From the NCBI GenBank assembly GCA_014687725.1, contig GCA_014687725.1_4094.1: a stretch of DNA of 64,000 bases. One strand, given 5' to 3'. Position 1 is the stretch's first letter. Every line of letters begins with the position of its first letter. The DNA comes from a phage. A model generated the notes under the pieces. That model saw nothing but the letters and a program-made list of their open reading frames with translations, did not search any database and had not been told where the DNA came from. A program made the position numbers and the translations under genes. Positions 20,122 to 38,191 of this stretch are shown in pieces.

Positions 20122-21231
20122 TTATTTTGGTAAATCAATTTTAGTAAAGACTGCAACATCCTCGATTGCACCTGGAATGGCGTAATACGATCCAGTACTA
20201 TACACATCTCCATTTTTGGTTAATATCGATGTCAAACCATCACTAAAAAGAACATCTCTAATCTCACTAACTTCAACGGGTAATTGTAAATTGGTAGCAC
20301 TATATATAGCACCAGTTTGAGAATTGTTTAATCCCAAACCACGGTTCGCCCCAACACCCTTCTGATATGTACTAGTAATTACCATTTGTGTAGCAGTATT
20401 TAATGCAGGTGAATTCGTCATAAACAACGGAGAACTATTAGGCAAAGTACTTACAGGAACTGCACGGAATGTAGTCGTACCTGAACTAAGAAAGTTTGGA
20501 GTTTGACCACATACGAAATATGATGTACCATTATAGTAATTTAATGCATTACCACCAATGGCTGCATCGATTACACCAGAACTACGCAATCCCCAAGTGT
20601 TAATTTGTGTTTGGTTCCCCGTACCATGCTGCCCACTACTATTCCATCCAGAACTATATAGCTTATTATCTAATGTAAGATACATACTATCATTCGCATT
20701 GGTCATTACTTTACGAACGTTCGTAGCACATTGAGTTAATGTATAAATTGATGATGAACCAATACCCAAAGAACCACGATATCCATTATCTCCTGCACCA
20801 TAGAGTACTGAATTAGTGCTAAGTACAAATATTAAACCATTTGTACATACAATATTAGCAATTTCACTTACTGGTATAGCATTGGTAAACCAATTAGTCC
20901 TTTCAACTAATACAGTACTGTAAGAAGTAGTCGTAGAAGATGAGAACCAGTACGTTTGACCTGATGTCCATATAGTATTATCATTTTTAATAATAACAAG
21001 TGTACGATCACCCACGAAAAAATTAGAAACATCTGCACTTACTAATATCCATGAAGATACCGTGTTGGTATTACCATTTCCAGATTCACCACCTTGATTT
21101 CTACCTATGTAATATAAATCATGTGAATCAGTCAATAAGAATTGACCTTGTGTAGAAGCACCAACTTTAATTATATTTTTAGGACCAGGTACAATATTTC
21201 CGTACTTAACCATTCTTCCAAAAGGTAACAT
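20122..21231 (-). CDS. RCC1-like repeat propeller protein, putative receptor-binding protein (11/13)
   Basis: Start set at MLPFGRMVKYGN; motif NSSGQHGTGNQT. Confidence 0.72.
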   Translation of the reverse strand: MLPFGRMVKYGNIVPGPKNIIKVGASTQGQFLLTDSHDLYYIGRNQGGESGNGNTNTVSSWILVSADVSNFFVGDRTLVIIKNDNTIWTSGQTYWFSSSTTTSYSTVLVERTNWFTNAIPVSEIANIVCTNGLIFVLSTNSVLYGAGDNGYRGSLGIGSSSIYTLTQCATNVRKVMTNANDSMYLTLDNKLYSSGWNSSGQHGTGNQTQINTWGLRSSGVIDAAIGGNALNYYNGTSYFVCGQTPNFLSSGTTTFRAVPVSTLPNSSPLFMTNSPALNTATQMVITSTYQKGVGANRGLGLNNSQTGAIYSATNLQLPVEVSEIRDVLFSDGLTSILTKNGDVYSTGSYYAIPGAIEDVAVFTKIDLPK

Positions 21232-21304
21232 AAATCCCTCCTTATTCATTATACTATATTTAATACAAAAAAGAAAAGCCAGCATCAAGTACTGGCATAT
21301 CAAA
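21232..21304 (-). promoter_or_regulatory. intergenic terminator + promoter/SD unit
   Basis: Same conserved element. Confidence 0.5.
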
Positions 21305-22453
21305 TCACTGCAAAAATGACATATCGACTTCGGTATAATTAAGAACGTTCTGTCCAGCAATACCTCCCATTACTACAATTGAAGCCCCACAATAATATAA
21401 CTTCGAAGTGTCAGTAAGTATAAGTGAACCAGATGGGGTGCGTACCAAATTACACGAAGTATTAAACGAAGTATATGAAGGGGTATAAGAGTACTGATTA
21501 ATATTATTACCAACACCTAATTGACCAGACGAGTTGCTTCCAGATGCATAAAGTACTTCATCACCTTTAACTATATGTGACGCCATGTTACCAACACAAG
21601 TATATAAACTATAAACTCCTGAACTCAATAATGTTGGAGTTTTGTATTGTATATCTGTAGATGAAGAAGTACCACCTGTGCCAAATTCGTTCCCGTATTG
21701 TGCACCGAACTGTTTACCACATGCGTACAAATTATTATCTGATTTAATAAAAAATGTACTCTGATAACTTACATCAAAATCTATAACATCCGAAGCAATC
21801 ATCGTCACCCCAGTAATAGAAGTTTGATTACCTGTACCTAACTGATAGTAATAGTTAAAACCACAACCCCATAAAGTATTATCTTCTTTTAGGTATATGT
21901 TACCAACTGCCTTTTTAACCGAAGTTATAGTATCTACCCTTTTGAATGTGTTAAAAGAATTAATGTTTGTACCATCACCAAATGATGATAGGTTAGAGTT
22001 ATTGTTAGCTCCACAACAATACAATGTACCATCGTTTGTTATCAAATTTACCTTCATATCATTAAAACTACTCATGTATTTTATATCAGAAACATTAATA
22101 CCACCTGATGTTATCCACGTAGTACATTCCGTCCACAAAGTTTTTCTATCAGTTACACCAGTGAATGCCTTCGTGTTACCAGTGATAAAAACTTTTCCAG
22201 TACCTTTCTCTTCATACAATTGACAATCACTACTGTTATTTTCCAATAGAACTCGTTTAACATTCTCCGCACTAAGAATAAATTTACTCGACGAAACACC
22301 TGTTCCAGTACCCCAATTCGTCGCAGAAGATGCATACAACTTATCAGTATAAGTATCATGAAGATACATGGAATCACTGGAATATATTTTAAAACGTCCA
22401 TCATCACCAGGGGCAATATTCCCGTACTTAATCATTCTAACAAAAGGTAACAT
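21305..22453 (-). CDS. RCC1-like repeat propeller protein, putative receptor-binding protein (12/13)
   Basis: Start set at MLPFVRMIKYGN; motif NSSGQLGVGNN. Confidence 0.75.
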   Translation of the reverse strand: MLPFVRMIKYGNIAPGDDGRFKIYSSDSMYLHDTYTDKLYASSATNWGTGTGVSSSKFILSAENVKRVLLENNSSDCQLYEEKGTGKVFITGNTKAFTGVTDRKTLWTECTTWITSGGINVSDIKYMSSFNDMKVNLITNDGTLYCCGANNNSNLSSFGDGTNINSFNTFKRVDTITSVKKAVGNIYLKEDNTLWGCGFNYYYQLGTGNQTSITGVTMIASDVIDFDVSYQSTFFIKSDNNLYACGKQFGAQYGNEFGTGGTSSSTDIQYKTPTLLSSGVYSLYTCVGNMASHIVKGDEVLYASGSNSSGQLGVGNNINQYSYTPSYTSFNTSCNLVRTPSGSLILTDTSKLYYCGASIVVMGGIAGQNVLNYTEVDMSFLQ

Positions 22454-22555
22454 ATTTCCCTCCTTATTCATTATATCATATTTACCCCATAAAGAAAACC
22501 CTTGACATCCTTTCAGTACTGGTGTACTATAGAAGGAATATAAGGAGAACTACAC
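22454..22555. promoter_or_regulatory. divergent promoter region between minus-strand MLPFGR cluster and plus-strand family-A array
   Basis: Plus strand TTGACA, 17 nt, TACTAT then AAGGAG before 22556; minus strand TATAAT-like box and AAGGAGG. Confidence 0.45.
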
Positions 22556-22783
22556 ATGACAAATACTCTTAAGCACTACCTCAATACTCTAAATGAACTA
22601 GAGTACGGGGAATTTCTCGCGGATAGTTCGTGGCTAATTGAGCTAAAAAATTATAATAGTCCAGGATGCACCCTTATGATGAACAATGCAATTGATACCC
22701 TCATTGTGAGTATTTTACACAGCAACATCTGCGGGGATAGCAATAAACAATTATCAAAAATCTTAGTACTGCTATCTATATGA
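22556..22783 (+). CDS. family-A small protein (1/19)
   Basis: ~60-75 aa, hydrophobic/aromatic C-terminus; AAGGAG SD. Confidence 0.5.
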   Translation: MTNTLKHYLNTLNELEYGEFLADSSWLIELKNYNSPGCTLMMNNAIDTLIVSILHSNICGDSNKQLSKILVLLSI

Positions 22784-22983
22784 ACATTGAACAGTACTAC
22801 ATCGATGCACTACCAACAAAAGGTCTACGAGAAAGCCTACTGTATACACAAAATACTTTTATACACTACAAACGTTGTCCTAAACTCCTGAACTCGTACA
22901 GGAGTAATATCATAAGAAATGCTTTACAAGGGGCAGAAAGTATGCAATACTATTATATCCTTGCCCTTTTAATCGAGTACTAA
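22780..22983 (+). CDS. family-A small protein (2/19)
   Basis: ATGA overlap; ends LALLIEY. Confidence 0.5.
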   Translation: MNIEQYYIDALPTKGLRESLLYTQNTFIHYKRCPKLLNSYRSNIIRNALQGAESMQYYYILALLIEY

Positions 22984-22984
22984 T

Positions 22985-23194
22985 ATGAATACTGAACATA
23001 AAGAATTCTACACCAAATACCTTAGCAACGAAGAACAATTGTTTCTAAGGAGTGTATCACCTGTAAGTACCAATACTCACTTCGGTAGAGATTGCTTTAA
23101 TAATTGTATACGTAGTACTCTAGAAGCAATCGAATGCAATAACAAAAATATTATGTACTCAGGTTTAATAGGACTAATCTACTTCTATGAATAA
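22985..23194 (+). CDS. family-A small protein (3/19)
   Basis: MNTEHKEFYTKYL...; near-duplicate of 25998 gene. Confidence 0.55.
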   Translation: MNTEHKEFYTKYLSNEEQLFLRSVSPVSTNTHFGRDCFNNCIRSTLEAIECNNKNIMYSGLIGLIYFYE

Positions 23195-23381
23195 TCATAA
23201 AGATTTCTATGGTAGTAAACTACACAAGCAAGACCAGCTATCATTCTCTTTAGCACCACCTATGAGAAAGGATAATCTATATTACAATTACGATTTCAGG
23301 ATGGCGACACGTTATGCAATAGAACATCAGTTCCCTGAAACTAAGTACCGCTCTATCCTGAACCTCATCTTTAAGTTCTAA
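23187..23381 (+). CDS. family-A small protein (4/19)
   Basis: MNNHKDFY start; overlap with previous. Confidence 0.5.
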   Translation: MNNHKDFYGSKLHKQDQLSFSLAPPMRKDNLYYNYDFRMATRYAIEHQFPETKYRSILNLIFKF

Positions 23382-23433
23382 AAGGTGCAACAGGAACCGA
23401 GTACTTTAATATAGTAAGGCTAATTACATTATA

Positions 23434-23619
23434 ATGAATCATATAAGCTACTACTACCAACAACTATCAGACAGAGACAAGTACAGTCACAACTCCCATG
23501 TGTGGTACTACAAACGCGGCAGTATAAGAGACAAACAACATTACTTCTGTATTTCTATTAAAGAAGCACTGACAACTAAGTACACGTACCGAGCAGTACT
23601 GAAACTTATTGAAATGTAA
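23434..23619 (+). CDS. family-A small protein (5/19)
   Basis: ~61 aa, ends KLIEM. Confidence 0.5.
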   Translation: MNHISYYYQQLSDRDKYSHNSHVWYYKRGSIRDKQHYFCISIKEALTTKYTYRAVLKLIEM

Positions 23620-23627
23620 GGAAGAAA

Positions 23628-23810
23628 ATGAACATAGAATTCTATTTAACTAAACTACAACACGCCGAAAGATTCAACTTCAATAAGTTCAATATTTTCT
23701 ACAATTGCGGGAACAAAAAAGATAAACACACCTTCCTATATGTCGTCACAAGAGATGCACAAAACGAAAAGTACACATACAGAGAAGTAATGAAACTAAT
23801 CGCTATTTAA
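23628..23810 (+). CDS. family-A small protein (6/19)
   Basis: Close paralog of previous (KYTYREVMKLIAI). Confidence 0.5.
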   Translation: MNIEFYLTKLQHAERFNFNKFNIFYNCGNKKDKHTFLYVVTRDAQNEKYTYREVMKLIAI

Positions 23811-23818
23811 GGAATACT

Positions 23819-23998
23819 ATGCAACAATTCTATAGAGAACGTATAACCATAAAAGACCGTTTCATGTACGACACCTTCGTGAAGTACTACAAACTAGGAA
23901 CAAAAAGTACTAAAAATATTAATCTCAATAGCTGCATTTATGCTGTACTAACACAAGATAATCCCTACAGGGAAATCCTCGCCCTGGCATCTATATAA
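23819..23998 (+). CDS. family-A small protein (7/19, 59 aa)
   Basis: Below track cutoff; MQQFYRER..., ends ILALASI. Confidence 0.4.
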   Translation: MQQFYRERITIKDRFMYDTFVKYYKLGTKSTKNINLNSCIYAVLTQDNPYREILALASI

Positions 23999-24008
23999 AG
24001 GAAACCAA

Positions 24009-24680
24009 ATGAAACTTAATGCACACAGCAAACAATACCTTAAGCACTTTAAGTACCTCAATAGTATTCAGGCAGAATCAGTTACATCTGCATATACGTA
24101 TCACCCGAATGTACTAAAGAAACGAAATAAAAAGGAAAAATCCAGTACAAATGGAGTTAACGTATCAAAGAACCTTGAATTGTACATGAAGAAAAATAAT
24201 ATAGCTGTTCATTATATGAATATCTATAATACTGATTTAAAAGTATTGAGTACTAATACGAGCACAAAGGTACTAAAGAACGCATCCTTCATCATCAATA
24301 TGCAGTTGGATAATACCCCGTGCACTTTAATGCTATACTTCGGGAATACATACTTCTTCGGGAATTGTAACACCTCCCACGATGTCAATACAGCACAATT
24401 CCAAATGGGTGGCATATACAATATGGGTTCAAAAAAAGTACACGAGAATATGCACTTCTGGCAAGCACAACGTACAGAAGAAACTAAATCAATTGTAGAT
24501 TTCCTCAAAGAACTAGAACACAAAGAACTACAGGAAGAAGAACTATTCATGTACAGTACTGTAATCGATAATCCAGTACTCTATAAAAACGCGTACAATC
24601 TGACAAAACATGTACAGGAAATTATCAGTACTAATAAGAAAATGCATCACCTCATTACGTATATTACAAACTATGTATAA
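24009..24680 (+). CDS. hypothetical protein (223 aa)
   Basis: Largest ORF in the family-A block; relationship to family A unclear. Confidence 0.5.
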   Translation: MKLNAHSKQYLKHFKYLNSIQAESVTSAYTYHPNVLKKRNKKEKSSTNGVNVSKNLELYMKKNNIAVHYMNIYNTDLKVLSTNTSTKVLKNASFIINMQLDNTPCTLMLYFGNTYFFGNCNTSHDVNTAQFQMGGIYNMGSKKVHENMHFWQAQRTEETKSIVDFLKELEHKELQEEELFMYSTVIDNPVLYKNAYNLTKHVQEIISTNKKMHHLITYITNYV

Positions 24681-24855
24681 AGAATACTACCAAGAACATC
24701 TCCCAATGCATCTCCAACACCTTGTACCCAAAGAACCAATAGGAATAAAAGATCACGCAAAAATAATGTTCCAACAATGTACTAAGTACACGCTCATATA
24801 CGATGATAATCCATATATGCTGTACTACGTAGTAATGCTAACATTCAGGTACTAA
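24673..24855 (+). CDS. family-A small protein (9/19)
   Basis: Start moved to ATG at MYKEYYQEHL; ends LTFRY. Confidence 0.5.
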   Translation: MYKEYYQEHLPMHLQHLVPKEPIGIKDHAKIMFQQCTKYTLIYDDNPYMLYYVVMLTFRY

Positions 24856-24856
24856 T

Positions 24857-25036
24857 ATGCACAAACATAAAGAATTCTACCTCTCGTACCTTAATTCCGA
24901 TATAGTAACATCCAATACCTTCAGTACTAAAATTATCTATAATGAATTAATAAAAGAATGTATTAAAGGTGCTATTAACCCTAAAGATACGTATGACTTG
25001 TACTATGCAGTACTAACCCTTGTTTTCACGAAATAA
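24857..25036 (+). CDS. family-A small protein (10/19, 59 aa)
   Basis: Below track cutoff; MHKHKEFYLSYL... Confidence 0.4.
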   Translation: MHKHKEFYLSYLNSDIVTSNTFSTKIIYNELIKECIKGAINPKDTYDLYYAVLTLVFTK

Positions 25037-25044
25037 CACATAAT

Positions 25045-25236
25045 ATGAATAACCACAAAGAATACTACATAGAGAAACTCCCAATGTATCTCCAACACCT
25101 TGTACCAAACGTTGCATTGGGTATAGAAAAAAACTACGAAAAAGACTACTTCATTCAGTGCACTAAATCCTCGATATATATTGACGACTATAATCGAGTA
25201 CTGTATCACATCCTTTTACTAATATATAGGTACTAA
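25045..25236 (+). CDS. family-A small protein (11/19)
   Basis: MNNHKEYYIEKLPMYLQHLVP..., ends LLIYRY. Confidence 0.55.
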   Translation: MNNHKEYYIEKLPMYLQHLVPNVALGIEKNYEKDYFIQCTKSSIYIDDYNRVLYHILLLIYRY

Positions 25237-25237
25237 T

Positions 25238-25420
25238 ATGCACAAAGAATACTACACACAATTTCTCCCCAGCATTTTTGAACACTACGCCAGATATAAA
25301 GTCCCTATGGATAACGATTTGGCAGTACTGGGATTCAATAACTGCATAGAACGAAGTATAGAAAATAGTAGTAGTTATGACCAGCTATATAACACTATCC
25401 TACTTATATTCAGGTACTAA
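25238..25420 (+). CDS. family-A small protein (12/19)
   Basis: MHKEYYTQFLP..., ends LLIFRY. Confidence 0.55.
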   Translation: MHKEYYTQFLPSIFEHYARYKVPMDNDLAVLGFNNCIERSIENSSSYDQLYNTILLIFRY

Positions 25421-25421
25421 C

Positions 25422-25610
25422 ATGCATAAAGAATACTACACAAAATATTTCCCAATGTACCTCAGAACTAATCTATTAGATAAACCTCGCGGTATCAATG
25501 CACAAAATGATAAAGTGTATTTTACTATGTGCACTAAAGCATGTATACTAGATTTTGACAGCTATCATCGAGTACTGTATCATACCCTGTACCTAGCTTT
25601 CGTATTCTAA
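25422..25610 (+). CDS. family-A small protein (13/19)
   Basis: Start moved to MHKEYYTKYFPMYL. Confidence 0.5.
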   Translation: MHKEYYTKYFPMYLRTNLLDKPRGINAQNDKVYFTMCTKACILDFDSYHRVLYHTLYLAFVF

Positions 25611-25619
25611 GAGAACAAT

Positions 25620-25805
25620 ATGCATAAAGAATTCTACTTAAGCCATCTGGATCTAAACTCCCAAATGCTTATACCACTAATCCCAATAGATATCAAGGAT
25701 AAGAAAAATACCGAACAATTCATTTACCATACACAGTGTGCGATCACCCCAAATTACATTCCATATGAATTGTACTACATTATCGCCCTAATATATAGGT
25801 ACTAA
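25620..25805 (+). CDS. family-A small protein (14/19)
   Basis: MHKEFYLSHL..., ends ALIYRY. Confidence 0.55.
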   Translation: MHKEFYLSHLDLNSQMLIPLIPIDIKDKKNTEQFIYHTQCAITPNYIPYELYYIIALIYRY

Positions 25806-25806
25806 T

Positions 25807-25992
25807 ATGCATAGAGAATACTACACACAATTTGTTAAAGGGAACTACAAACATGCCGTACCCAGAACCCCTTTAAATTCTCATGACCCAAGTACTATAT
25901 TCTTGTTCCATGACGCAATACGTACAGTACTCAATACTAAAGATGAAGATGTGCAGTACGTATTCTTACTATTACTTATATACAGACACTAA
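25807..25992 (+). CDS. family-A small protein (15/19)
   Basis: MHREYYTQFV..., ends LLLIYRH. Confidence 0.55.
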   Translation: MHREYYTQFVKGNYKHAVPRTPLNSHDPSTIFLFHDAIRTVLNTKDEDVQYVFLLLLIYRH

Positions 25993-25997
25993 CTAAT

Positions 25998-26207
25998 ATG
26001 AATAAAGAACATAAAGAATTCTACTCCAAATACATAAGCCCCTCAGAACAAATGTTTCTAAGGACTACACCACCTTTAAGTACTAATACATATTTCGGCA
26101 GAGTATGCTACAATAATTGTATTCAAATGACTTTAAACGCAAACGAAGATGGTAACAGTACTAACCTGTACTCAGGTATCATAGGTATACTATTCCTGTA
26201 TGAATAA
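25998..26207 (+). CDS. family-A small protein (16/19)
   Basis: MNKEHKEFYSKYISPSEQMFLRT...; near-duplicate of 22985 gene. Confidence 0.55.
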   Translation: MNKEHKEFYSKYISPSEQMFLRTTPPLSTNTYFGRVCYNNCIQMTLNANEDGNSTNLYSGIIGILFLYE

Positions 26208-26388
26208 TTACAAAGACTTCTATTTGAATACACTACCTACTGTACTTTCTCTAAGTGCTCAATGTAAAATCCCGCTGGATAATGCTTACGCCAGATATAG
26301 CTATTCCATAACTGTTAATCGATGTATAGAGAATCATTGCAGTACTAACCAGTACTATAACATAATCCTACTTATATTCAGGTACTAA
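26200..26388 (+). CDS. family-A small protein (17/19)
   Basis: MNNYKDFY..., ends LLIFRY. Confidence 0.55.
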   Translation: MNNYKDFYLNTLPTVLSLSAQCKIPLDNAYARYSYSITVNRCIENHCSTNQYYNIILLIFRY

Positions 26389-26389
26389 T

Positions 26390-26572
26390 ATGAATAAAGA
26401 ACATAAAGAATTCTATATACGAAAACTAACATTCGTCCCCGTAAGAATATATAAAGAATGCGACCCAAGATTATACCTATGGCACTTCAATGAGTGCATA
26501 AAAGATTCTATATACCCTAAGAACTACAAAGAACAATTGTGCTCAGTACTAACACTAGTACTATCATATTAA
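26390..26572 (+). CDS. family-A small protein (18/19)
   Basis: MNKEHKEFYIRKL... Confidence 0.55.
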   Translation: MNKEHKEFYIRKLTFVPVRIYKECDPRLYLWHFNECIKDSIYPKNYKEQLCSVLTLVLSY

Positions 26573-26587
26573 TTAATAGAGAATACT

Positions 26588-26779
26588 ATGTATAAAAACT
26601 TCTATATAAGTAAACTAAAAGAAAATGAACAAGTATGGATTAGATCTATAATTCCACTGGCATTTAATAGATATGCATTTAACAGATGTACCGAGATTGC
26701 TATAGACCCTTATAATATTAAAGAGAATGTACAGTATAATCAGTACTACTATATCTTAATGCTTATATATAGGAAGTAA
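26588..26779 (+). CDS. family-A small protein (19/19)
   Basis: MYKNFYISKL..., ends MLIYRK. Confidence 0.55.
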   Translation: MYKNFYISKLKENEQVWIRSIIPLAFNRYAFNRCTEIAIDPYNIKENVQYNQYYYILMLIYRK

Positions 26780-26954
26780 TTAAACACAAGTAGACAGGGG
26801 AAGCTCCTAGTGAACAACCTTTATGTACAGGCGAATTGTTAAAATTCAGCCTGGACAAATGCGATCACTAGGATTCTCCCCAGGCTAAACCCCGTAATCA
26901 TAGGTAGTCATAAGTAATCATATATAAACATTTAAGTAATCATTTATAATCACT

Positions 26955-26983
26955 GTAGTGATCAGTAGTGATCAGTAGTGAGT
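26955..26983. repeat. tandem 10-bp repeat GTAGTGATCA (about 2.8 copies) flanked by TAATCA repeats
   Basis: gtagtgatcagtagtgatcagtagtgagtact; GTAATCA repeated several times in 26890-27130. Confidence 0.5.
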
Positions 26984-27620
26984 ACTAGAGTACAGGAATG
27001 TTCACGTTTAATCAAGAACGTAGCAGTACTGATATGCCACTAAGTAGGCAGAGGAAGTCTGCCGTACTTTGTAGTTTCCAAGCTCCTTTTCCATTTTTCA
27101 AATTACATCAAATGTAATCAAAAGTAATCACGCAATGATTAGTACTGAATTATTACTTTCACCTTAATTTCAATTACCCCTTTACCCTTCGGGGTAAAAT
27201 TCCATTACCCCTTGAGGCTCCAGCAAAAAGTTGGTTAGTACTCCATCCTAAATCTCGATCCTAAAAATTTTGGAGTACCTATGAAATAAAAGTTGGATCT
27301 TCGAAAGTTGAAATTTACGTTGGGACGTTTATGATTTGTGGGATATAATGATGTTTGTAGTCGGGTAGTTCTCAAGAATATCAGTACTGAATGGTGAAAG
27401 AAAGTTATTGACATTATGATTCAGTACTGTATAATGTTCTACATAGAGAGATGAGTTGCTGCGAACAATTCATTTACTCTACCTCCTGTCGTGAGACAGT
27501 ACAGAAAAGATAGTTCCTCCTGTGGTGGTACATCTTTTTGAACCTCATATGAAAATCGTAATAACAGTACTGATATTAACAGAATGGTGTCAGTACTGAT
27601 TTTAATCTAAAGCATTATGC

Positions 27621-27639
27621 CACCAGCTTGTGCTGGTGG
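27621..27639. repeat. perfect inverted repeat CCACCAGC-ttgt-GCTGGTGG (Chi octamer in both orientations)
   Basis: Direct reading; hairpin-capable palindrome containing Chi. Confidence 0.6.
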
Positions 27640-27785
27640 ATTCCCTCTAACAGTATTCAGTACTACATGATGGTCTTCATCCTCCTAGGGTAACATAGTG
27701 AGGGCTATGATGGCAGTACTGAATACTCCCTTTCAAAAGATAGATCTATGGTATAGTACTGACGGATTTTGGGTGTAGTTACCCT

Positions 27786-27945
27786 GGATGGATTTTGGAC
27801 GTAGATATGTCTAGTCCTCCAGAAGTCTGGAAGTAAAGATGGCTATCCATCTAGACGGCTAAACGGCTAGATTTCTGGATGGCTGGATGGCTAGACGTTT
27901 GGACGGCTAGATGGTTACACGTCTGGAAGTATAGACGGCTAAATC
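27786..27945. repeat. iteron-like cluster of short direct repeats (GACGGCTARA, GGATGGCT, TCTGGAAGTA) followed by AT-rich tract
   Basis: At least 8 imperfect repeat units in ~150 bp, then aaaattttattttgtttttt. Confidence 0.55.
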
Positions 27946-28685
27946 AAAATTTTATTTTGTTTTTTCCAATAGTTCCCCTACCGCGTGGGGATAGTTTCCC
28001 CGCAGTATCTGGAGTTAGATTTTTCTGAATCTGGAATCATTATCTTATAAACTGGGGGCAATGTCAACGGCCTGGACGGATATTTTTAAAAATTTTTTCA
28101 GTACTGAATTTTGGGCGTAACTATGCACCCGGTGGGCTTGAGTCTTTCTCGACTTGATGGAACTATTATACAGTACTGGAAAAATAAAGCAATACCCTGG
28201 AAGCAAAAAAGTTTTAATTAATTTGCTTGCTATCCTGGGCCGGACTATGGTACTATATTTCAGTACTGAGAAAGTGCTTTTACCTGCTAGGGTGCGGGAG
28301 TGTATCCTTTTTAAATTTACTGAATTTTGGGCGTAGTTCCGCACCCTGTGGGTTAGTGCCTTGTGTCCGGCTTATGTAGTAATTATACGCTTTTTCAGGA
28401 TCAAGTCAATACCTAAAAACAAAATAATTGAAAATAATTTAACGCGTTTAAACGGCCCGTAAAGCCCTGGAATGATTGGAATGGTGCAAATGTATAGCTT
28501 AGGTGTATTAATGCGTTAGAATGCGTCTGAGGCCGTTTTATGGGGTGTAGTAGTGATTTGGTTGATTCAGTACTGAATGATAGTACTACTATATAGAAAG
28601 ATAGTTCCCCTGGATGGTTGCAGTACTGAAAGATAGTTCCCCTATATAGAAAGAAAACTATTTTAAAAGTATTTGTAGAAAGTAC

Positions 28686-28713
28686 TTGCAAAGTATTGGG
28701 AAAGGTGTAGAAT
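28686..28713 (+). promoter_or_regulatory. early-type sigma70-like promoter (type 1)
   Basis: AGTACTTGCAA -35, 16-nt spacer, TAGAAT -10, then gTTTTACATcgag and 5' hairpin; this architecture recurs >20 times in 28.7-47 kb. Confidence 0.5.
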
Positions 28714-28770
28714 GTTTTACATCGAGACGGGGGATACGCTCCCGACTCACTTTTAAAAGAGATTAAAACG

Positions 28771-29133
28771 ATGGCGACTCAAATCAATACTATCATGCTT
28801 AACCTGGTTTCTTTCCGTGAAGAGATGAAAGATCTTCCCGCTGAGACTGTACGGATTCACATTGCAGCTTATCGGGAATTGATTGCAATGCTGCCGCTTA
28901 AGCGTGAACAGTACGCCGCTACTGCAATGCTGGACGCAATGATACATAAGATGATCCAGACTGATTTAACGATGGCTTATCAGTACATGGGCGAAATGTT
29001 TGCAGTGTATAGCAAGCCAGTACCAGGAATGGAAAGTACAGAAGTATTACACGGCTTAAACTTAAAACAAGATGCATGGGATAATATGCCTCGTTTCCTG
29101 GTATGGGCTGATAGTGGAAAGATTTACGAATAA
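28771..29133 (+). CDS. hypothetical early protein
   Basis: Own promoter and leader hairpin; ATG start. Confidence 0.6.
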   Translation: MATQINTIMLNLVSFREEMKDLPAETVRIHIAAYRELIAMLPLKREQYAATAMLDAMIHKMIQTDLTMAYQYMGEMFAVYSKPVPGMESTEVLHGLNLKQDAWDNMPRFLVWADSGKIYE

Positions 29134-29147
29134 GTTTTTAAAAGTAC

Positions 29148-29175
29148 TTGCAAAGTAAGTTTAAAGGCGTATAAT
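29148..29175 (+). promoter_or_regulatory. early-type promoter (type 1)
   Basis: TTGCAA, 16 nt, TATAAT. Confidence 0.5.
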
Positions 29176-29187
29176 ACTTTACATCAG

Positions 29188-29207
29188 GTGGGGAATAGTT
29201 CCCCACT
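29188..29207 (+). promoter_or_regulatory. conserved 5'-UTR stem-loop (example copy)
   Basis: GTGGGGA-atagt-TCCCCAC between -10 box and SD. Confidence 0.5.
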
Positions 29208-29226
29208 ATATAAGAGGATTAAAAAA

Positions 29227-29466
29227 ATGGCTAAATCAAAAATGTTCTTAGGTCACAAAAACAAAACTCAATGGAATGTAAGCCTTTGGATTAATAACGA
29301 CGAATCATTATACCGGTTGGCCCAGGACTTTATTGCCGCTAACACTAATCGTAATGATGCGGCCCGTCATATGATGCTATTTTTAGAACAGACTGGACAA
29401 GATAAAACACCGGACGGCTTTAAGTATAGCACTACTGCGATCCGTGCGGCGATGGTTGGAATGTAA
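29227..29466 (+). CDS. hypothetical early protein
   Basis: Track ORF starts at GTG inside the leader hairpin; ATG at 29227 follows AAGAGGA. Confidence 0.55.
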   Translation: MAKSKMFLGHKNKTQWNVSLWINNDESLYRLAQDFIAANTNRNDAARHMMLFLEQTGQDKTPDGFKYSTTAIRAAMVGM

Positions 29467-29548
29467 GAGAATAGATTAAAAGTACTATTGCACGGTGATA
29501 GTACTTTATAATAGATTTCTTTTATACAACAACGATAGGGGTAACAGC

Positions 29549-29815
29549 ATGAATATTATATACTTTGCAACGCGTGAACTTGCTCGGATTGCCGCACGCC
29601 AGGACGGGGCGACGTTTAAAGATATGGGCGTACAATCTGAACGTGGTAAACGTTGGGCCGTAGTAAAGCAAAGTACAGCCCGTTCAATTCAGTACTGGCT
29701 ATCTGCTTTAAAGCGTCCTGATAGTGTATCGCGTCGCGTGGTAGAAATAAAGCACGACCGCAAGGGCAACCGCGTTACTGTGTACAGTACTAAAAAGATT
29801 GCAGTACTTGAATAA
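29549..29815 (+). CDS. hypothetical early protein, paralog of 41865-42260
   Basis: Shared YATRE.ARI.AR..GA.FKDMG...RWAV and HDRKGNRVTVYS blocks. Confidence 0.55.
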   Translation: MNIIYFATRELARIAARQDGATFKDMGVQSERGKRWAVVKQSTARSIQYWLSALKRPDSVSRRVVEIKHDRKGNRVTVYSTKKIAVLE

Positions 29816-29901
29816 AAAGTACTTGCAAACTATGTTTAAGGGCGTATAATGTTTTACATCGAGAGCGGGAATAGTTCCCGCCTATAACCAGGAGTAATAA
29901 A

Positions 29902-30132
29902 ATGACCAATATGTATATGACTGAAGTTAAAACCGTAAAAGATACTACCACTAATAAAACTACTTACTTACAGCGGATCTGCGGTGTATGGCAACGTATC
30001 AGCAAATCAAAGTACTTTAAATTAACATCATATGCCAATCGTTCGGATTCATTCAGTACTGAAATAAAAGGTAATAAAGTACACCAATACGGCACTTATT
30101 ATTATTATAGCCTGGAGGCGATTGCAGTATAA
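29902..30132 (+). CDS. hypothetical early protein
   Basis: Promoter + GCGGGAA-tag-TTCCCGC leader hairpin + AGGAG. Confidence 0.55.
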   Translation: MTNMYMTEVKTVKDTTTNKTTYLQRICGVWQRISKSKYFKLTSYANRSDSFSTEIKGNKVHQYGTYYYYSLEAIAV

Positions 30133-30159
30133 GTAGTTTACAAATCTTTACAATTGCCA

Positions 30160-30350
30160 GTATTGACTTATTTTGTCAGTACTGGCATAATGTATTCATT
30201 GGCAGATAAGCCGTAGCCCATAGGGTGCGGGAGTGTATCTATAGAAAAATTAGTTTAGTATAGTTACAATTGTGCACCCGGTGGGTTAGCTGTTGTCATG
30301 GGGTATATTATGCCAGTACTTGATAATGCTGTCAATACTTTTTTTTAATA
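30160..30350 (+). repeat. structured repeat element with own promoter (candidate small RNA)
   Basis: TTGACT, 17 nt, CATAAT, then inverted arms CCCATAGGGTGC ... GCACCCGGTGGG and U-run; arms recur elsewhere. Confidence 0.35.
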
Positions 30351-30559
30351 TTCAGTACTGAAAACTATTTTTAAAAAGTACTTGCAAACTATGTTTAAAG
30401 GCGTATAATGTTTTACATCAGGACGGGGGACGAAATAAGTAACTTCCCGTTAAGTAGCCCAGGAGTAAGGCACACGAAAAACTCCCCTGATAAAATAGTT
30501 TGACAATTGTTTTTAAAAGCGTATAATACTTACATCAACTACTGAATGAGGGTTACAAA

Positions 30560-31171
30560 ATGAAAACTATCACTACTACTACTTTCGTTATGGATTTTTC
30601 TGAATTGAACGCAGAACAACAAACGTCAGCTATCGAACTGGTTCGGGAACGTGAAAAAAACTCAAACGACAATTATTTTTCTGAAAGTGAAATTGAATAC
30701 TATAAAGAAACAGTACTACCGGAATATGGCATTAATGACGCTGAAATACAATTCAGTGGTTTTTGGTCCCAGGGTGACGGTGCATCAATCAGTACTGACC
30801 ACGTTGACGCAGTGAAGTTTTTACGCAAGGTAAGAGCATTAACTAAGTATCGCTCAATCCGTCACCTGCTGAATGAAGATGATTTGGCGATGAGTGTAAA
30901 GCGTTCTCACTCCCACTACTCGCATGAGAATACTGTAAGCGGGTACATTGAATCGGCTTACACTGATTTAACCGCAAAACAAGAAACGTTAGTTAATGAG
31001 CTTGAGGAACTACTCACTGAAACTATTCGTGAATTGTCCCGCAAGTTGTACCGTGATTTAGAGAATGCATATGAGGATCAATTCACTACTGAAAACATTA
31101 CGGCACTGATTGAGGGTAACGAATATCAATTCAATGTTATTGATGGCGTAGTAGAATCAATCGAATATTAA
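30560..31171 (+). CDS. hypothetical early protein (203 aa)
   Basis: Tandem promoters with structured leader upstream; ATG after GAGGG. Confidence 0.6.
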   Translation: MKTITTTTFVMDFSELNAEQQTSAIELVREREKNSNDNYFSESEIEYYKETVLPEYGINDAEIQFSGFWSQGDGASISTDHVDAVKFLRKVRALTKYRSIRHLLNEDDLAMSVKRSHSHYSHENTVSGYIESAYTDLTAKQETLVNELEELLTETIRELSRKLYRDLENAYEDQFTTENITALIEGNEYQFNVIDGVVESIEY

Positions 31172-31264
31172 TTCAAAAAGTACTTGCAAACTAAGTTTAA
31201 AAGCGTATAATACTTTATATCGAGGCGGGGAATGGTTCCCCGCTCACACTAAAAGGGCAACAAA

Positions 31265-31537
31265 ATGAAAACTTTAAATATCACAACTGCACATCAATTG
31301 GTTCGGGATGCAATGGATCATGTGCAAGATTTCTTCCCTGATGTAAGTGTCGTAACTTATGAAAAAGGTACTTGGACTTATTCAACAATTAATGGTTATG
31401 AGCCTGATTTCGATGATCTGGAAGAAATGGAATTTAATTTTGATCTGCTGAATGATGCCGCCCGTGAAGTTGAAAACGATGTTCAATACATTGATGGTTC
31501 TGTCGCACCTGATGCAGTAAAAGAATTAAAAAACTAA
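31265..31537 (+). CDS. hypothetical acidic protein
   Basis: Promoter + leader hairpin + ATG. Confidence 0.55.
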   Translation: MKTLNITTAHQLVRDAMDHVQDFFPDVSVVTYEKGTWTYSTINGYEPDFDDLEEMEFNFDLLNDAAREVENDVQYIDGSVAPDAVKELKN

Positions 31538-31622
31538 AAAGTACTTGCATTGTAGTTAGATTAACGTATAATACTTTATATCGAGGCGGGGAATGGTTCC
31601 CGCCTTTACTGAGGGTTATCTA

Positions 31623-31883
31623 ATGAGCAAAGTAATTAACTATACAGTGTTAAGCAAGTCATTGTCTATTAGCCAATGTACTGATGGTTATTGGCTTTAT
31701 GATGAAACGCGTGGCATGAATTTAGCTATGCAGGAGAAAACTACTGATGCGGCATATCTTAAAGCACTGGAATACTACCAGAAGCGTTTAAAGGAAGTAG
31801 AAAACGATTATAATAACCTGAAAGCGAAAGTAGATAATTTCGTTGGTCAATTCATCGAGGAAGACGACGACATACAATATTGA
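31623..31883 (+). CDS. hypothetical early protein
   Basis: Start moved to ATG downstream of leader hairpin. Confidence 0.5.
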   Translation: MSKVINYTVLSKSLSISQCTDGYWLYDETRGMNLAMQEKTTDAAYLKALEYYQKRLKEVENDYNNLKAKVDNFVGQFIEEDDDIQY

Positions 31884-31968
31884 AAAAGTACTTGCAATTA
31901 GTTTTTAGTACTGTATAATGGTTTACATAGAGGGGGAAATGGTTCTCCCTGGTAATGAGGAAAATAAA

Positions 31969-32190
31969 ATGGCTAATATCACTACTCTTTCCCAACTGGA
32001 AGCACTGGTTAAATCTATGCGGGAACATGCCGACAAAATCGGCGTACAAGATCCAGCCGTTTGCTTCTGCGACGAATTGAATGATGATACCCTGGTAATA
32101 GCAGAAGTCCAGGACGTTTCTAACTATTCCTCGCGTTACACTGGCGGCGTAGCAAATAAAGGTGACTTCTGTTTATACCTTACAAAATAA
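31969..32190 (+). CDS. hypothetical early protein
   Basis: Start moved to MANITTL after AATGAGGAAAATAAA. Confidence 0.5.
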   Translation: MANITTLSQLEALVKSMREHADKIGVQDPAVCFCDELNDDTLVIAEVQDVSNYSSRYTGGVANKGDFCLYLTK

Positions 32191-32194
32191 CAAC

Positions 32195-32225
32195 GCGGGG
32201 AGATAATAACTCCCCGTTACTTTTT
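32195..32225 (+). terminator. intrinsic terminator
   Basis: GGGGAG-ataataa-CTCCCC then gttaCTTTTT. Confidence 0.5.
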
Positions 32226-32433
32226 CAGTACTGAATCATTTAATAGACGGATCTCGGCACCCGGTGGGTTAGTGACTGTTTCGTCTTGATGTAGTAATTA
32301 TGCCAGTACTGGATGCACTTGTCAACAACTATTTTTCAAATACTTTTTATTAAAATACTTGCAATTAGTTTTTAAACGCGTATAATGTTTTGCATAGGGG
32401 GAGCGGTTCCCCTGGTAACTAAGGAATAAGAAA

Positions 32434-32670
32434 ATGGTCGAACAAATCAAATCAACGTCTTCGAATGTAACGGGAACGGTAGCACACTTTACTAGTGATG
32501 AATCGCGGGGCGTTCCCTATTGTGCTGTACATGTAAACACTGAGGGTAACTACTGGTTTACGGTTTACGGATCATATTCATTTGGACGGCCAGGGCATCA
32601 AAAAATTCTGGATAAAGTACAACCAACGGGTAAAAATATCACTGCCGAAATGTTTTATAAAAAATCATAA
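32434..32670 (+). CDS. hypothetical early protein
   Basis: Promoter + hairpin + AAGGAATAAGAAAATG. Confidence 0.55.
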   Translation: MVEQIKSTSSNVTGTVAHFTSDESRGVPYCAVHVNTEGNYWFTVYGSYSFGRPGHQKILDKVQPTGKNITAEMFYKKS

Positions 32671-32754
32671 AGTACTTGATAATAGTTTTTAGTACTGTAT
32701 AATATTTTACATCGCAAGGGGGAGCGGTTCCCCCTGGTAACTAAGGATAATCAA

Positions 32755-33054
32755 ATGAAAATTGCAATCATCGCCCTGGCTTTATCTGTTTCCTCTTTCG
32801 CTGTTAATGCGTCATTAGATGTAAGTAGTGAAAAATTCATTCAGTGCACTGTTGCAATGACCGATGAAAGTACTGGCGAGATTGTTTTAAAGGATTTAGA
32901 GATCCAGCCAGAAGCATTTAAAAACGGGCCGTTCCATGAAGAAGACGAAAAAGGTAGCACGACAATTTATTACGATGCAAGTACTAAACGCGGTTCGGTC
33001 ACTGTTATGGATACTGAGAAAGTTACATTCACTGGCGTAATTAATTGTTTATAA
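32755..33054 (+). CDS. secreted/periplasmic small protein (predicted signal peptide)
   Basis: MKIAIIALALSVSSFAVNA/SLD: n-h-c regions with AxA-like cleavage site. Confidence 0.6.
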   Translation: MKIAIIALALSVSSFAVNASLDVSSEKFIQCTVAMTDESTGEIVLKDLEIQPEAFKNGPFHEEDEKGSTTIYYDASTKRGSVTVMDTEKVTFTGVINCL

Positions 33055-33071
33055 TATAGTACTGAATCACT

Positions 33072-33100
33072 AGCCCACTATAAGAAGTGGGCTTTTTTTA
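33072..33100 (+). terminator. intrinsic terminator
   Basis: AGCCCACT-ataagaa-GTGGGCT + TTTTTTT. Confidence 0.65.
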
Positions 33101-33292
33101 TTGTAGTATTGTAGTACTGGTATACTTTGAAAATAGTTTTAAAAAAGTAGTTGACATTACCAGGGAAAAGCGTAGAATGTATTACATCAAGACGGGGAAC
33201 ACTAAGTAGACCGCCAGTAAGTCGAATGAAAAACTGGACACGTCAAACAAACTTTGATAAACTAACTTAAACTTTAATTGAGGATTTATAAA

Positions 33293-33775
33293 ATGGCTAA
33301 TGTAAAATCATTTCTGAAAGCACTGATTTCTAACGATACTGTTATTGCTGCTGAATTGCTGGCTGACCTGGATAATGATACCATGAAAGCAGTACGCAAC
33401 AATTTTAACATTGCTTACAGTGAAGCGAAAGAACTACAAGCCAAAAAGGTAGCAGAACTGGAAGAACAGAAAAAAGCCCGTGAAGCAGAACTGCAAGCAA
33501 CAATAGAAAGTATTCAGGCGGCGGTGTCTGGTTTAGATCTGGAAGTGGTTATTGAAATGGCACATAAAGCCCTGGCGGTTAAGTACGGTGAAGATAAGCC
33601 GGAATCTAAGCCTAAAAAATGGATTCAAGAACGTGTTACGGTTGTCCTTGATAACGGGGAAGAACATTTGATTCCTGTACGCGGTAACTGCATTGCGGTA
33701 GTACTGGATGCAATCAAAGAAAGCGGTATGACTCGCGAGGAATGGATCGAAGCTCACCGCAAAGTTGAAGCATAA
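33293..33775 (+). CDS. hypothetical protein (160 aa), coiled-coil-like central region
   Basis: Start moved to MANVKSF after GAGGA; K/E/A-rich heptad-like stretch. Confidence 0.55.
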   Translation: MANVKSFLKALISNDTVIAAELLADLDNDTMKAVRNNFNIAYSEAKELQAKKVAELEEQKKAREAELQATIESIQAAVSGLDLEVVIEMAHKALAVKYGEDKPESKPKKWIQERVTVVLDNGEEHLIPVRGNCIAVVLDAIKESGMTREEWIEAHRKVEA

Positions 33776-33796
33776 CAATTAAAGTACTGAATCACT

Positions 33797-33823
33797 AGCC
33801 CACTGTATAAGTGGGCTTTTTTG
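33797..33823 (+). terminator. intrinsic terminator
   Basis: AGCCCACT-gtata-AGTGGGCT + TTTTTT. Confidence 0.65.
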
Positions 33824-34059
33824 TGTTTATCGTTTACCAGGCCACCAGCACCGCCTAGAATCGATTCTAACGCATTAAACTGATTATCTGATGCATCGCC
33901 CTAGCTGGTGGCGTTAAGGTCGTTAGAATGCGATTGAGGACGTTTAAAGTATTTTGCAAAAAGTAATAAAAAGTACTTGCACGATTAAGAGATTAGCGTA
34001 TAATGTTTTACATCGAGAGGGGGAAACGGTTCTCCTTCCAAATCAAAGGAATCAAAACA

Positions 34060-34287
34060 ATGGCTATCGTAATCGCTTATGTAACTGGTACTACTGGCAC
34101 TTCTTCTACTGTTGCTGTAATTACCAACAAGAAAGGTGCGGAATTACATTCTGCAATGGATACCTGGGCGGTAAATGAGTTCGGTCAGTGGGCAAGTGTA
34201 GCATATGTTGAAACCTATCAAGTGCCAACCATTAGCTTAACGGATCTCGGTGTAGATCGTATCCTTTGCCTGGATGAATTAAATTAA
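34060..34287 (+). CDS. hypothetical early protein
   Basis: Start moved to MAIVIAY downstream of leader hairpin. Confidence 0.5.
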   Translation: MAIVIAYVTGTTGTSSTVAVITNKKGAELHSAMDTWAVNEFGQWASVAYVETYQVPTISLTDLGVDRILCLDELN

Positions 34288-34373
34288 AAAAGTACTTGCA
34301 AAGTAAATCAGATAAAGTATAATACATTACATCAAGGGGAGAAATGGTTCTCCCTGATAATGAGGAAACTAAT

Positions 34374-34517
34374 ATGAAAACTTGTCAATGTGGTAAAAAA
34401 TCTATTACTGGTTTAAAGCGGGGCGTTGCTCTTTGCCAGTACCATTATAATTTACAAGTATGGGGTAAAGAATGGGCCGACCAGGTGGAAGCAGCAAAGA
34501 AAGCAAAAAGTAAGTAA
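34374..34517 (+). CDS. small Cys-containing protein (47 aa)
   Basis: Below track cutoff; full promoter-hairpin-SD-ATG context; CQCG...C.YH pattern. Confidence 0.4.
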   Translation: MKTCQCGKKSITGLKRGVALCQYHYNLQVWGKEWADQVEAAKKAKSK

Positions 34518-34536
34518 AATTATTATCACAGTACTA

Positions 34537-34565
34537 TTGACATAGATTGATAGTACTGGCATAAT
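34537..34565 (+). promoter_or_regulatory. early promoter (type 2, AGTACT-flanked)
   Basis: cAGTACTaTTGACA, 17 nt, gatAGTACTGG-CATAAT; no 5' hairpin; recurs at ~34820, ~37690, ~37970, ~38500, ~45410. Confidence 0.5.
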
Positions 34566-34598
34566 AGATTTTATCAAGACAACTAAGAGGAAACAATA

Positions 34599-34811
34599 AT
34601 GGCTATCATCACAAAAATCAAAGTAAACAAATCACTGGTTAAGCTGGAAGAAGTGAAAGAAGGTTATAAAGTATCGTGGTGCGGCATGTATCGGATTTTT
34701 ACAGATGTTGACGATGCAATCAATTACTACACTGACACGGTAAAAAACTTTGTTCGTGCTGATGTGGTTATGGCAGTGGCAACACACAAAGCATCGAAAG
34801 AAAGTAAGTAA
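34599..34811 (+). CDS. hypothetical early protein, paralog of 37763-37942
   Basis: Both start MAII.K; type-2 promoter upstream. Confidence 0.55.
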   Translation: MAIITKIKVNKSLVKLEEVKEGYKVSWCGMYRIFTDVDDAINYYTDTVKNFVRADVVMAVATHKASKESK

Positions 34812-34892
34812 AAATATTATCACAGTACTATTGACATAGTTTGATAGTACTGGCATAATAGATTTTATCAAGACAACTAAGAGGAAATTAAA

Positions 34893-35237: not shown

Positions 35238-35317
35238 TTAGCTTTACTTTATGCAGATACTTTGATATAGTGTCTGCATAGGGGAAAGAAATTAAATTAA
35301 CTTAAGAGGATAGTATA

Positions 35318-35587: not shown

Positions 35588-35638
35588 TCAAAACATCGTT
35601 AGCGGTCGATTTAGGCCGCTTATATTGGGGATTATACC

Positions 35639-35911: not shown

Positions 35912-35916
35912 TTAAT

Positions 35917-36126: not shown

Positions 36127-36195
36127 TTTTTAAACGCGTATAATGTTTTACATGAAGGGGAGAAATGATTCTCCCCACTAATTAAGGAATATGAA

Positions 36196-36800: not shown

Positions 36801-36810
36801 AAAAAAAAGT

Positions 36811-38185: not shown

Positions 38186-38191
38186 GAATAT

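Follow-up and report, generated by a model that had tools for sequence, protein, structure and literature searches.

A 64,000-nt stretch of phage DNA (NCBI GenBank assembly GCA_014687725.1, contig GCA_014687725.1_4094.1; hereafter the window) carries, on its forward strand between nt. 22556 and 26779, an unbroken series of 19 open reading frames (ORFs), 18 of which encode proteins of 59–75 a.a. and one a protein of 223 a.a. We propose that this array forms an early operon with coupled translation, whose small and diversified binding proteins serve host takeover or counter-defence, a reading to which we give a probability of about one half. Based on sequence comparison, 17 of the 19 genes appear to belong to one diverged family (family A), 13 via hidden Markov model (HMM) and BLAST matches and four via profile–profile comparison only.

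Under this proposal, all 19 genes would be transcribed as one polycistronic unit by the host sigma70 RNA polymerase from a promoter at nt. 22502–22530, and translation would be coupled from gene to gene via stop and start codons that overlap or lie 1 nt apart. At the 1-nt spacings, the penultimate arginine codon of one gene (AGG, in the arrangement AGG TAC TAA N ATG) would serve as the Shine–Dalgarno (SD) sequence of the next. More tentatively, the products would act as host-takeover or counter-defence effectors, with the paralogs directed at separate host targets or at separate variants of a single target. Turnover between strains, which carry 14–22 of the small genes in a mosaic fashion, would proceed via recombination at the conserved gene junctions and exchange between related phages.

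Array Organization and Family Membership

The genes, designated m01 to m19 in order of position, are separated by gaps of −4, 1, −8, 52, 8, 8, 10, −8, 1, 8, 1, 1, 9, 1, 5, −8, 1, and 15 nt, which bears out the dense packing, with stops abutting or overlapping starts, described in an earlier note on this DNA (−8 to +15 nt, with the single exception of 52 nt). Two starts were corrected to family-typical ones, that of m09 to nt. 24673 (previously 24610; MYKEYY) and that of m13 to nt. 25422 (previously 25377; MHKEYY), and with these starts the N-terminal extensions of both ORFs vanish. For comparison, the array ORFs of eight related phages (121Q, JP4, BF17, A4, vB_Ec-M-J, UE-S1, SD-1_S14, and PBECO4) were mapped onto the genes of the window.

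The core of family A comprises 13 members (m03, m04, and m09–m19), which score E-values of 1e-17 to 2e-26 against an HMM built from them (self-matches, with no leave-one-out), while the best non-member ORF of the window scores 0.018. In an all-against-all BLASTP comparison (E < 1e-4), 11 of the 13 fall in one cluster, with m10 and m18 forming a separate pair. The PHROG 11711 profile (function unknown) matched all five core members tested (E 1.7e-12 to 1.3e-25) across its whole 62 positions; it gave no match for m01, m02, m05, or m07. The signature [KR][EDN][FY]Y lies near the N-terminus of every core member, and the C-terminal end is a hydrophobic helix; the exact C-terminal "RY" occurs in only five.

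The remaining genes, m01, m02, and m05–m07, fell below significance against the core HMM. Using hhalign with profiles that included orthologues from eight other phages, the m05–m07 group aligned with the core at 90% probability (E 1.9e-6, 54 collinear columns) and m02 at 84% (E 7e-6, 60 collinear columns); m01 (1%) and the 223-a.a. product of m08 (0.2%) were not linked. In addition, the m02-like genes of two divergent metagenome contigs (L009 and L012) match the core HMM directly (E 3e-5 to 6e-5). The earlier count of about 19 paralogs is therefore better given as 13 clear and four remote members (m02 and m05–m07), with m01 unassigned and m08 unrelated.

The putative operon begins with m01 (nt. 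22556–22783, 75 a.a.), whose membership of the family is unsupported and whose orthologues are found in all eight compared phages at 56–99% identity. It is followed by the remote member m02 (nt. 22780–22983, 67 a.a.) and by the core genes m03 (nt. 22985–23194, 69 a.a.; PHROG 11711 E 1.7e-12) and m04 (nt. 23187–23381, 64 a.a.), the start of which overlaps the m03 stop (ATGAATAA). The remote m05–m07 subfamily comes next: m05 (nt. 23434–23619, 61 a.a.), m06 (nt. 23628–23810, 60 a.a.; a single copy in the window), and m07 (nt. 23819–23998, 59 a.a.), which shares 58% identity with its counterpart in L012. The unrelated but conserved m08 (nt. 24009–24680, 223 a.a.) matches PHROG 29152 (function unknown), and its stop is overlapped by the start of m09 (nt. 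24673–24855, 60 a.a.). The rest of the array is made up of core genes: m10 (nt. 24857–25036, 59 a.a.), m11 (nt. 25045–25236, 63 a.a.; PHROG 11711 E 1.3e-25), m12 (nt. 25238–25420, 60 a.a.; E 2e-24), m13 (nt. 25422–25610, 62 a.a.), m14 (nt. 25620–25805, 61 a.a.), m15 (nt. 25807–25992, 61 a.a.), m16 (nt. 25998–26207, 69 a.a.), m17 (nt. 26200–26388, 62 a.a.; E 2.5e-14), m18 (nt. 26390–26572, 60 a.a.), and lastly m19 (nt. 26588–26779, 63 a.a.; E 7e-24).

The closest pair of paralogs, m03 and m16, share 59% amino acid identity and 75% nucleotide identity over 245 nt, too little for the "near-duplicates" that these two genes had been called. Each has orthologues elsewhere, the m03 type in all eight compared phages and the m16 type in five, and their duplication is therefore older than these phages.

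Coding Status and Selection

The array ORFs are intact in the eight related phages and evolve as coding sequence. Across 111 ungapped ortholog pairs, the Nei–Gojobori dN/dS was 0.43 in the annotated frame (range 0.29–0.48 per phage), compared to 1.08 and 1.16 in the other two frames, and the ortholog differences numbered 385, 305, and 569 at codon positions 1, 2, and 3, respectively. The members are thus true protein-coding paralogs, and this frame-specific purifying selection refutes the idea that conservation is explained by DNA-level repeats only. Between orthologues, pN/pS was lowest on the C-terminal helix (0.30) and highest in alignment columns 1–24 (0.56–0.66). In our judgement, which draws on the family A genes alone, selection is relaxed.

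Public annotations omit most of these genes: of 17–23 intact conserved ORFs, four are annotated in Sharanji (locus L015, nt. 36711–40714), approximately six in PBECO4 (L008), and approximately 13 in BF17 (L003). Most public Asteriusvirus annotations miss many family A genes, Sharanji carrying only 4 of about 17. A 20.7-kb terminal repeat has been reported in the Sharanji phage, in a paper that gives no coordinates for it.

Putative Translational Coupling and Gene Junctions

Pairing with the anti-SD sequence is stronger at the starts of the array genes (median −3.7 kcal/mol) than at other ATG codons of the region (−0.2 kcal/mol; Mann–Whitney p 1.5e-4). Five genes end in AGG TAC TAA, followed by a single base and the next ATG, placing AGGT 7–10 nt before the start codon. 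The AGG codon is used in six of seven penultimate arginine codons, compared to 5 of the 43 arginine codons elsewhere in the array, and wherever a gene ends in "RY", the following ATG lies 1 nt away. Genes that precede spacers of 8–10 nt lack the "RY" and have TAAGGAA in the spacer instead, while three junctions are ATGnAnTAA overlaps. With its stop–start overlap or abutment and SD sequences inside the upstream coding sequence, the array has the sequence characteristics expected of a translationally coupled operon. The conserved C-terminal motif would then be partly a nucleotide-level signal, as the RY codons double as the ribosome-binding site of the next gene, which explains part of the conservation of the "RY" tail.

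The junctions are also where DNA is repeated. Direct repeats in the array are short (20–82 nt, 60–95% identical) and sit at gene junctions, running from the end of one gene across its stop and the following ATG into the opening codons of its neighbour. Tandem Repeats Finder detected no repeat spanning gene units, its sole match in the array being a 24-nt two-copy repeat at nt. 25126–25149. The best-conserved DNA block among the paralogs is AAAGAAT(T/A)CTAC, which encodes K-E-(F/Y)-Y (84–88% identity), and the junction repeats formed by the gene tail together with this block measure 45–69 nt and are 62–82% identical. Such repeats could plausibly support unequal recombination or recombination between phages. 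Separately, we noted an EcoRI site (GAATTC) at the same K-E-F codons in five family A genes, inside the conserved block AAAGAATTCTAC, which is notable for a coliphage.

Putative Promoter, Timing, and 3′ End

Upstream of m01, an 84-bp spacer separates the array from an RCC1-like beta-propeller gene transcribed in the reverse direction (start at nt. 22471). This spacer is nearly invariant in nine phages, even in A4, whose m01 is just 56% identical. It contains a putative sigma70-type promoter facing the array (nt. 22502–22530, forward strand; TTGACA-N8-CAGTACTG-N3-TACTAT; scan score 10/12), the −35 hexamer, CAGTACTG, and −10 hexamer of which are kept in the nine phages, and the SD sequence of m01 (AAGGAG, nt. 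22542–22547, forward strand), which has the strongest predicted anti-SD duplex of the array (−9.3 kcal/mol). The earlier note had the array transcribed divergently from the propeller cassette out of a shared promoter region. The divergent arrangement over the spacer stands; the promoter as read, however, faces family A, and the propeller genes probably use a different, late-type signal, because they encode virion proteins in the phAPEC6 phage.

A search of the forward strand with the regular expression TTGA[CA]...AGTACT...TAnnnT gave 15 matches, namely the array promoter, a site inside m13 at nt. 25555, and 13 intergenic sites at nt. 27408–46182 with the consensus TTGACA-N8/9-AGTACTG-(T/GC)ATAAT. 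As the array promoter and the intergenic ones have the same architecture, family A shares its promoter type with the neighbouring small-gene region. The m13 site (nt. 25555–25583, forward strand; TTGACA-17-TATCAT with AGTACTG; scan score 11/12) matches this phage promoter pattern and is a candidate internal promoter. Across the array region as a whole, promoter-like matches showed no excess over shuffled sequence. We also considered an internal promoter in every gene, given that AGTACT lies 15–50 nt before many of the stops; this was rejected, as the enrichment is only ~2-fold and the scan did not exceed shuffles, and only the site at nt. 25555 was kept.

Each of the 13 intergenic promoters precedes a small gene (~60–120 a.a.), and one further match lies on the reverse strand at nt. 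30335. Downstream of several of the promoters come a GC-rich 5′ hairpin (e.g., ggggagaaatgattctcccc) and a AAGAGGAAA ribosome-binding site.

In the related CBB phage, RpoD-like promoters cluster among short hypothetical ORFs regarded as early host-takeover genes (PMC5259590), and the 62 proteins identified in the phAPEC6 virion include RCC1-like paralogs and no ~7-kDa family A protein (PMC7247149). We infer two divergent units of different temporal classes, with family A early and the RCC1-like genes late. A search of the literature found no Asteriusvirus transcriptomics.

At the other end of the array, a long imperfect hairpin lies just 3′ of the m19 stop (nt. 26797–26881, forward strand; minimum free energy −39.7 kcal/mol, z −4.0). 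The outer stem does not vary among nine phages and shows no informative covariation, and the hairpin may form the 3′ end or a stabiliser of the operon transcript.

Predicted Fold and Homology

The AlphaFold2 model of the m12 protein, computed from a 58-sequence family alignment, is confident (predicted local distance difference test, pLDDT, 92; predicted template modelling score 0.75) and contains four helices at residues 3–7, 12–18, 27–42, and 46–58. The conserved scaffold consists of the N-terminal HKE(F/Y)Y helix and the C-terminal hydrophobic helix, and the paralogs vary most in mid-protein. Several members are basic (isoelectric point 8.5–9.5). The family A products are predicted to be ~7-kDa cytoplasmic four-helix proteins. 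The corresponding model of m08 was unusable (pLDDT 38) and was set aside, and a scan of IMG/VR with m08 returned only the 121Q phage.

Searches for homologues led back to the same phages. Foldseek found nothing below an E-value of 5 in the PDB with the family A model, a structure search of BFVD gave only an orthologue and a 121Q paralog, and sequence searches of Pfam, NCBIfam, PADLOC, and the PDB gave no meaningful match. A word-indexed search of 5.8 billion proteins returned 61 relatives, and an exhaustive profile search of 1.84 billion representative proteins returned 31 matches, 29 of them proteins of 59–69 a.a.; the two long matches (1805 and 531 a.a.) contained multiple short matched stretches and were taken as spurious. 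All named sources among the relatives are Asteriusvirus phages or E. coli records with contigs as large as phage genomes (about 350–380 kb), and family A thus appears to be lineage-restricted. No homologue beyond Asteriusvirus-like phages was found among relatives with a source name or on the contigs inspected, nor was any distant relative of known function. Our literature search returned no description of family A itself.

Relatives, Copy Number, and Evolution

A megablast search with nt. 22000–27500 retrieved 37 phage records, every one of them from an Asteriusvirus jumbo phage of Escherichia or Salmonella, among them 121Q (97.5% identity) and JP4 (94.7%, full coverage). The window is thus DNA of an Asteriusvirus jumbo coliphage. 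These records annotate the array region only as "hypothetical protein", beside genes annotated as "regulator of chromosome condensation" (RCC1-like). The number of small genes varies between phages by whole genes, from 14 in UE-S1 and SD-1_S14, 16 in 121Q, and 17 in A4 and PBECO4, through 18 in the window, to 21 in JP4 and 22 in BF17 and vB_Ec-M-J. For instance, m06-like genes number four each in JP4 and vB_Ec-M-J (EcMJ) and three in BF17, which has a similar fourth ORF scoring best against m05, while 121Q lacks m10, m16, and a close m17 orthologue, its best m17 match being 44% identical and adjoining m08. Along the array, identity to JP4 runs 99, 84, 99, 94, 100, 62, 95, 75, 83, 93, 95, 100% and so on, a mosaic typical of recombinational replacement.

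Tandem amplification, in the sense of a recent or ongoing process, finds no support here. In nine of nine genomes, the closest paralogs share no more than 59% amino acid identity, and near-identical adjacent copies are absent; as no pair exceeds 59% in any genome, nothing points to recent amplification. The sequence data favour ancient duplications, after which the copies diversified and were lost or replaced differently from phage to phage, over a recent accordion.

The divergent contigs L009 and L012 keep the order m01-like, two m02-like, m05-like, core, m07-like, m08-like, and at least ten core members. Their m08 is only 41% identical to that of the window, and orthologues remain recognisable for m02 (52%), m07 (58%), and m15 (57–58%). 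Given this order and these orthologues, the array appears to be ancient and its members to have been maintained as distinct genes, with m08, which is present in all relatives, as its positional anchor.

Proposed Function and Alternative Explanations

Several points weigh against a coupled early operon of binding proteins. The array members are known from sequence alone. The array promoter is identified by its resemblance to the consensus, and the case for early timing is one of analogy; virion mass spectrometry easily misses small proteins, so the absence from the phAPEC6 virion is weak evidence. With respect to coupling, m19 keeps its AGG codon with no gene following it, and conservation of AGG could partly reflect shared ancestry. 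Lastly, no segment along the protein has a pN/pS above 0.66, which gives no support to an arms race.

A more specific version, which we put forward only tentatively, holds that the array stores a set of inhibitor cassettes, diversified on one minimal four-helix scaffold, each of which would disarm its own defence effector of the host or its own variant of a host factor, with a junction that is at once C-terminus, ribosome-binding site, and recombination site. If so, cassettes could be swapped, lost, and gained between co-infecting Asteriusviruses without breaking expression, and the array would be a phage counterpart to the multigene families of large eukaryotic DNA viruses.

It seems unlikely that the products serve in an immunity-like role or in superinfection exclusion, with every paralog neutralising its own nuclease, toxin, or competing phage. 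Such proteins would be expected to form tandem sets of small, diversified paralogs whose content varies between strains, as is the case here, and arrays of immunity paralogs, which DNA viruses have also recruited, are described in the literature (PMC3113570). However, family A shows no similarity to immunity families in Pfam or PADLOC, and no toxin gene is adjacent; the idea is also a sub-case of the binding-protein proposal, inseparable from it by sequence.

We consider it improbable that family A comprises small nucleic-acid-binding regulators, either transcription modulators or AGTACT binders acting on the phage genome. The small, helical domains and the basic character of several members would suit such a role, as would the hexamer AGTACT, which is 11.5-fold over-represented in the window and is a component of the early promoter consensus.

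The products might also be packaged internal or inner-body proteins in the style of the T-even phages, with the N-terminus as a capsid-targeting sequence and injection alongside the DNA. T4 internal proteins have a common N-terminal targeting peptide and vary between strains; family A likewise has a conserved N-terminal MxHKE(F/Y)Y, and both 121Q and phAPEC6 have an inner body. Against this, residues 3–7 form the first helix of a confident AlphaFold fold rather than a disordered leader, inspection of the sequences found no consistent protease-site motif after the N-terminus, the promoter is of the sigma70 type and not the late type, and no ~7-kDa family A protein is among the 62 phAPEC6 virion proteins (although small proteins may escape mass spectrometry). 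The virion list and the promoter type together disfavour packaging, and we regard it as very unlikely.

Finally, the view that the ORFs are non-functional, conserved as DNA-level repeats or duplication relics, may draw on the omission of most of them from several public annotations and on the repeated junction DNA, but it is largely refuted by the frame-specific purifying selection, the intact ORFs in the same order in nine genomes and on the divergent metagenome contigs, the SD enrichment at starts, the confident predicted fold, and the lack of a gene-unit tandem repeat.

Surrounding Genome Region

The array is flanked by RCC1-like virion genes and an ORF-poor region. On the reverse strand at nt. 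8268–22471 lie approximately 12 tandem RCC1-like beta-propeller paralogs, with BLAST linking 14 ORFs of 62–439 a.a., some of them fragments. Eight proteins of this block were detected by mass spectrometry in the phAPEC6 virion, six annotated as "DNA condensation protein" and two as "hypothetical" (PMC7247149). Because of this detection, the RCC1-like products are structural proteins and not chromatin regulators, and they possibly form the "hairy" fibres.

Upstream on the forward strand, nt. 4803–7583 contain a run of seven or eight genes that abut one another and encode proteins of 104–141 a.a. with a hydrophobic, membrane-like character (hydrophobicity judged by eye); BLAST links only the first two (nt. 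4803 and 5144). An ORF at nt. 962–1477 (forward strand; N-terminus MTRINLV...) resembles, by eye, a pyrimidine-dimer DNA glycosylase of the T4 endonuclease V kind. The window contains no tRNA according to ARAGORN, and no Rfam match was found at the gathering threshold over the whole window or in E-value mode over nt. 26700–28800.

On the other side of family A, a 2-kb ORF-poor stretch (nt. 26780–28770) is unannotated in 121Q, and GC content over 27–29 kb is ~0.39–0.40, above that of the flanks. The stretch holds 11 CAGTACTG sites, the short tandem repeats GTAGTGATCA and TAAGTAATCAT (three copies each), the minimum of the cumulative GC skew, and the best sigma70 match of the window (nt. 27408–27435, 12/12). 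Within it, ~100 nt (nt. 26838–26935) are essentially identical in nine phages, apart from one substitution in JP4, an insertion in UE-S1, and a variable base near nt. 26900. This stretch could be a regulatory region, a replication origin, or a non-coding RNA locus.

The hexamer AGTACT, a ScaI palindrome, occurs 252 times in the window compared to ~21 expected, by far the most over-represented hexamer, and CAGTACTG occurs 50 times compared to 0.8 expected. AGTACT is densest at nt. 24000–48000 and 26780–28770 and absent from nt. 48001–52000 and 56001–60000; it lies both between genes and within them, in all three reading frames. In L012, the divergent metagenomic relative, 50 copies fall within 6 kb. 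AGTACT may act as an element of promoters or of regulation, as a target of modification, or as a site bound by a protein, and our literature search found no earlier report of its enrichment.

Comparison with Known Systems

In jumbo phages, small genes without a known function take up tens of kilobases, and a second family of this kind is present in the window itself. Family B (nt. 47585–55726, forward strand) comprises 29 BLAST-linked proteins of 52–96 a.a. that carry an LGTNYQE motif and whose genes overlap at their stops and starts. Families A and B share the strand, the genome type, and the small size of their proteins, and each forms its own BLAST cluster; they are nevertheless unrelated (hhalign probability <1%), in agreement with the distinction drawn in the earlier note, and family A has fewer members, is more diverged, and surrounds the 223-a.a. 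anchor gene. In 121Q, ">30 very similar genes" in tandem have been described and read as tandem duplication (Hua et al. 2017, PMC5646251), an array that most likely corresponds to family B.

The immunity arrays of polymorphic toxin systems (SUKH and Imm) likewise consist of small paralogs that have diversified and are presumed to bind different partners (PMC3113570, PMC3482391). Family A differs from them in showing no detected sequence or fold similarity and no toxin-like neighbour, and in being encoded by a lytic phage. With anti-CRISPR (Acr) and other anti-defence operons, the array shares small proteins without database homology, early-type promoters, and variable content. It differs in lacking an Aca-type helix-turn-helix gene or any known Acr homologue (Pfam, NCBIfam, PADLOC; the fold searches were uninformative here), and its members are mutual paralogs, which is unusual for Acr loci.

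Among large eukaryotic DNA viruses, the MGF100, MGF110, and MGF360 families of African swine fever virus, the poxvirus families, and the poxvirus "gene accordions" are tandem paralogs with isolate-variable copy number, tied to host range and immune evasion. The array is likewise tandem and copy-variable, but without near-identical copies (≤59%) and in a different host; the likeness is one of analogy, not homology. Its history would be one of old duplication, diversification, and recombinational turnover, which corrects the idea of ongoing amplification for such arrays.

In layout, the array resembles the early clusters of small non-essential ORFs in T4-like and Rak2-like phages, exemplified by the CBB_390–546 region of CBB, where dense short hypothetical genes also stand behind sigma70/RpoD-like promoters and vary in content between relatives. 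Family A adds to such early-region small-gene paralog arrays of large phages, which are a known type, and offers ~17 natural variants of one 60-residue scaffold that can be cloned and screened for host targets or anti-defence activity. Compared to CBB-type clusters, the array is set apart by having 17 of its 19 genes from what appears to be one diverged family with a common predicted fold, in one putatively coupled operon with few intergenic promoters.

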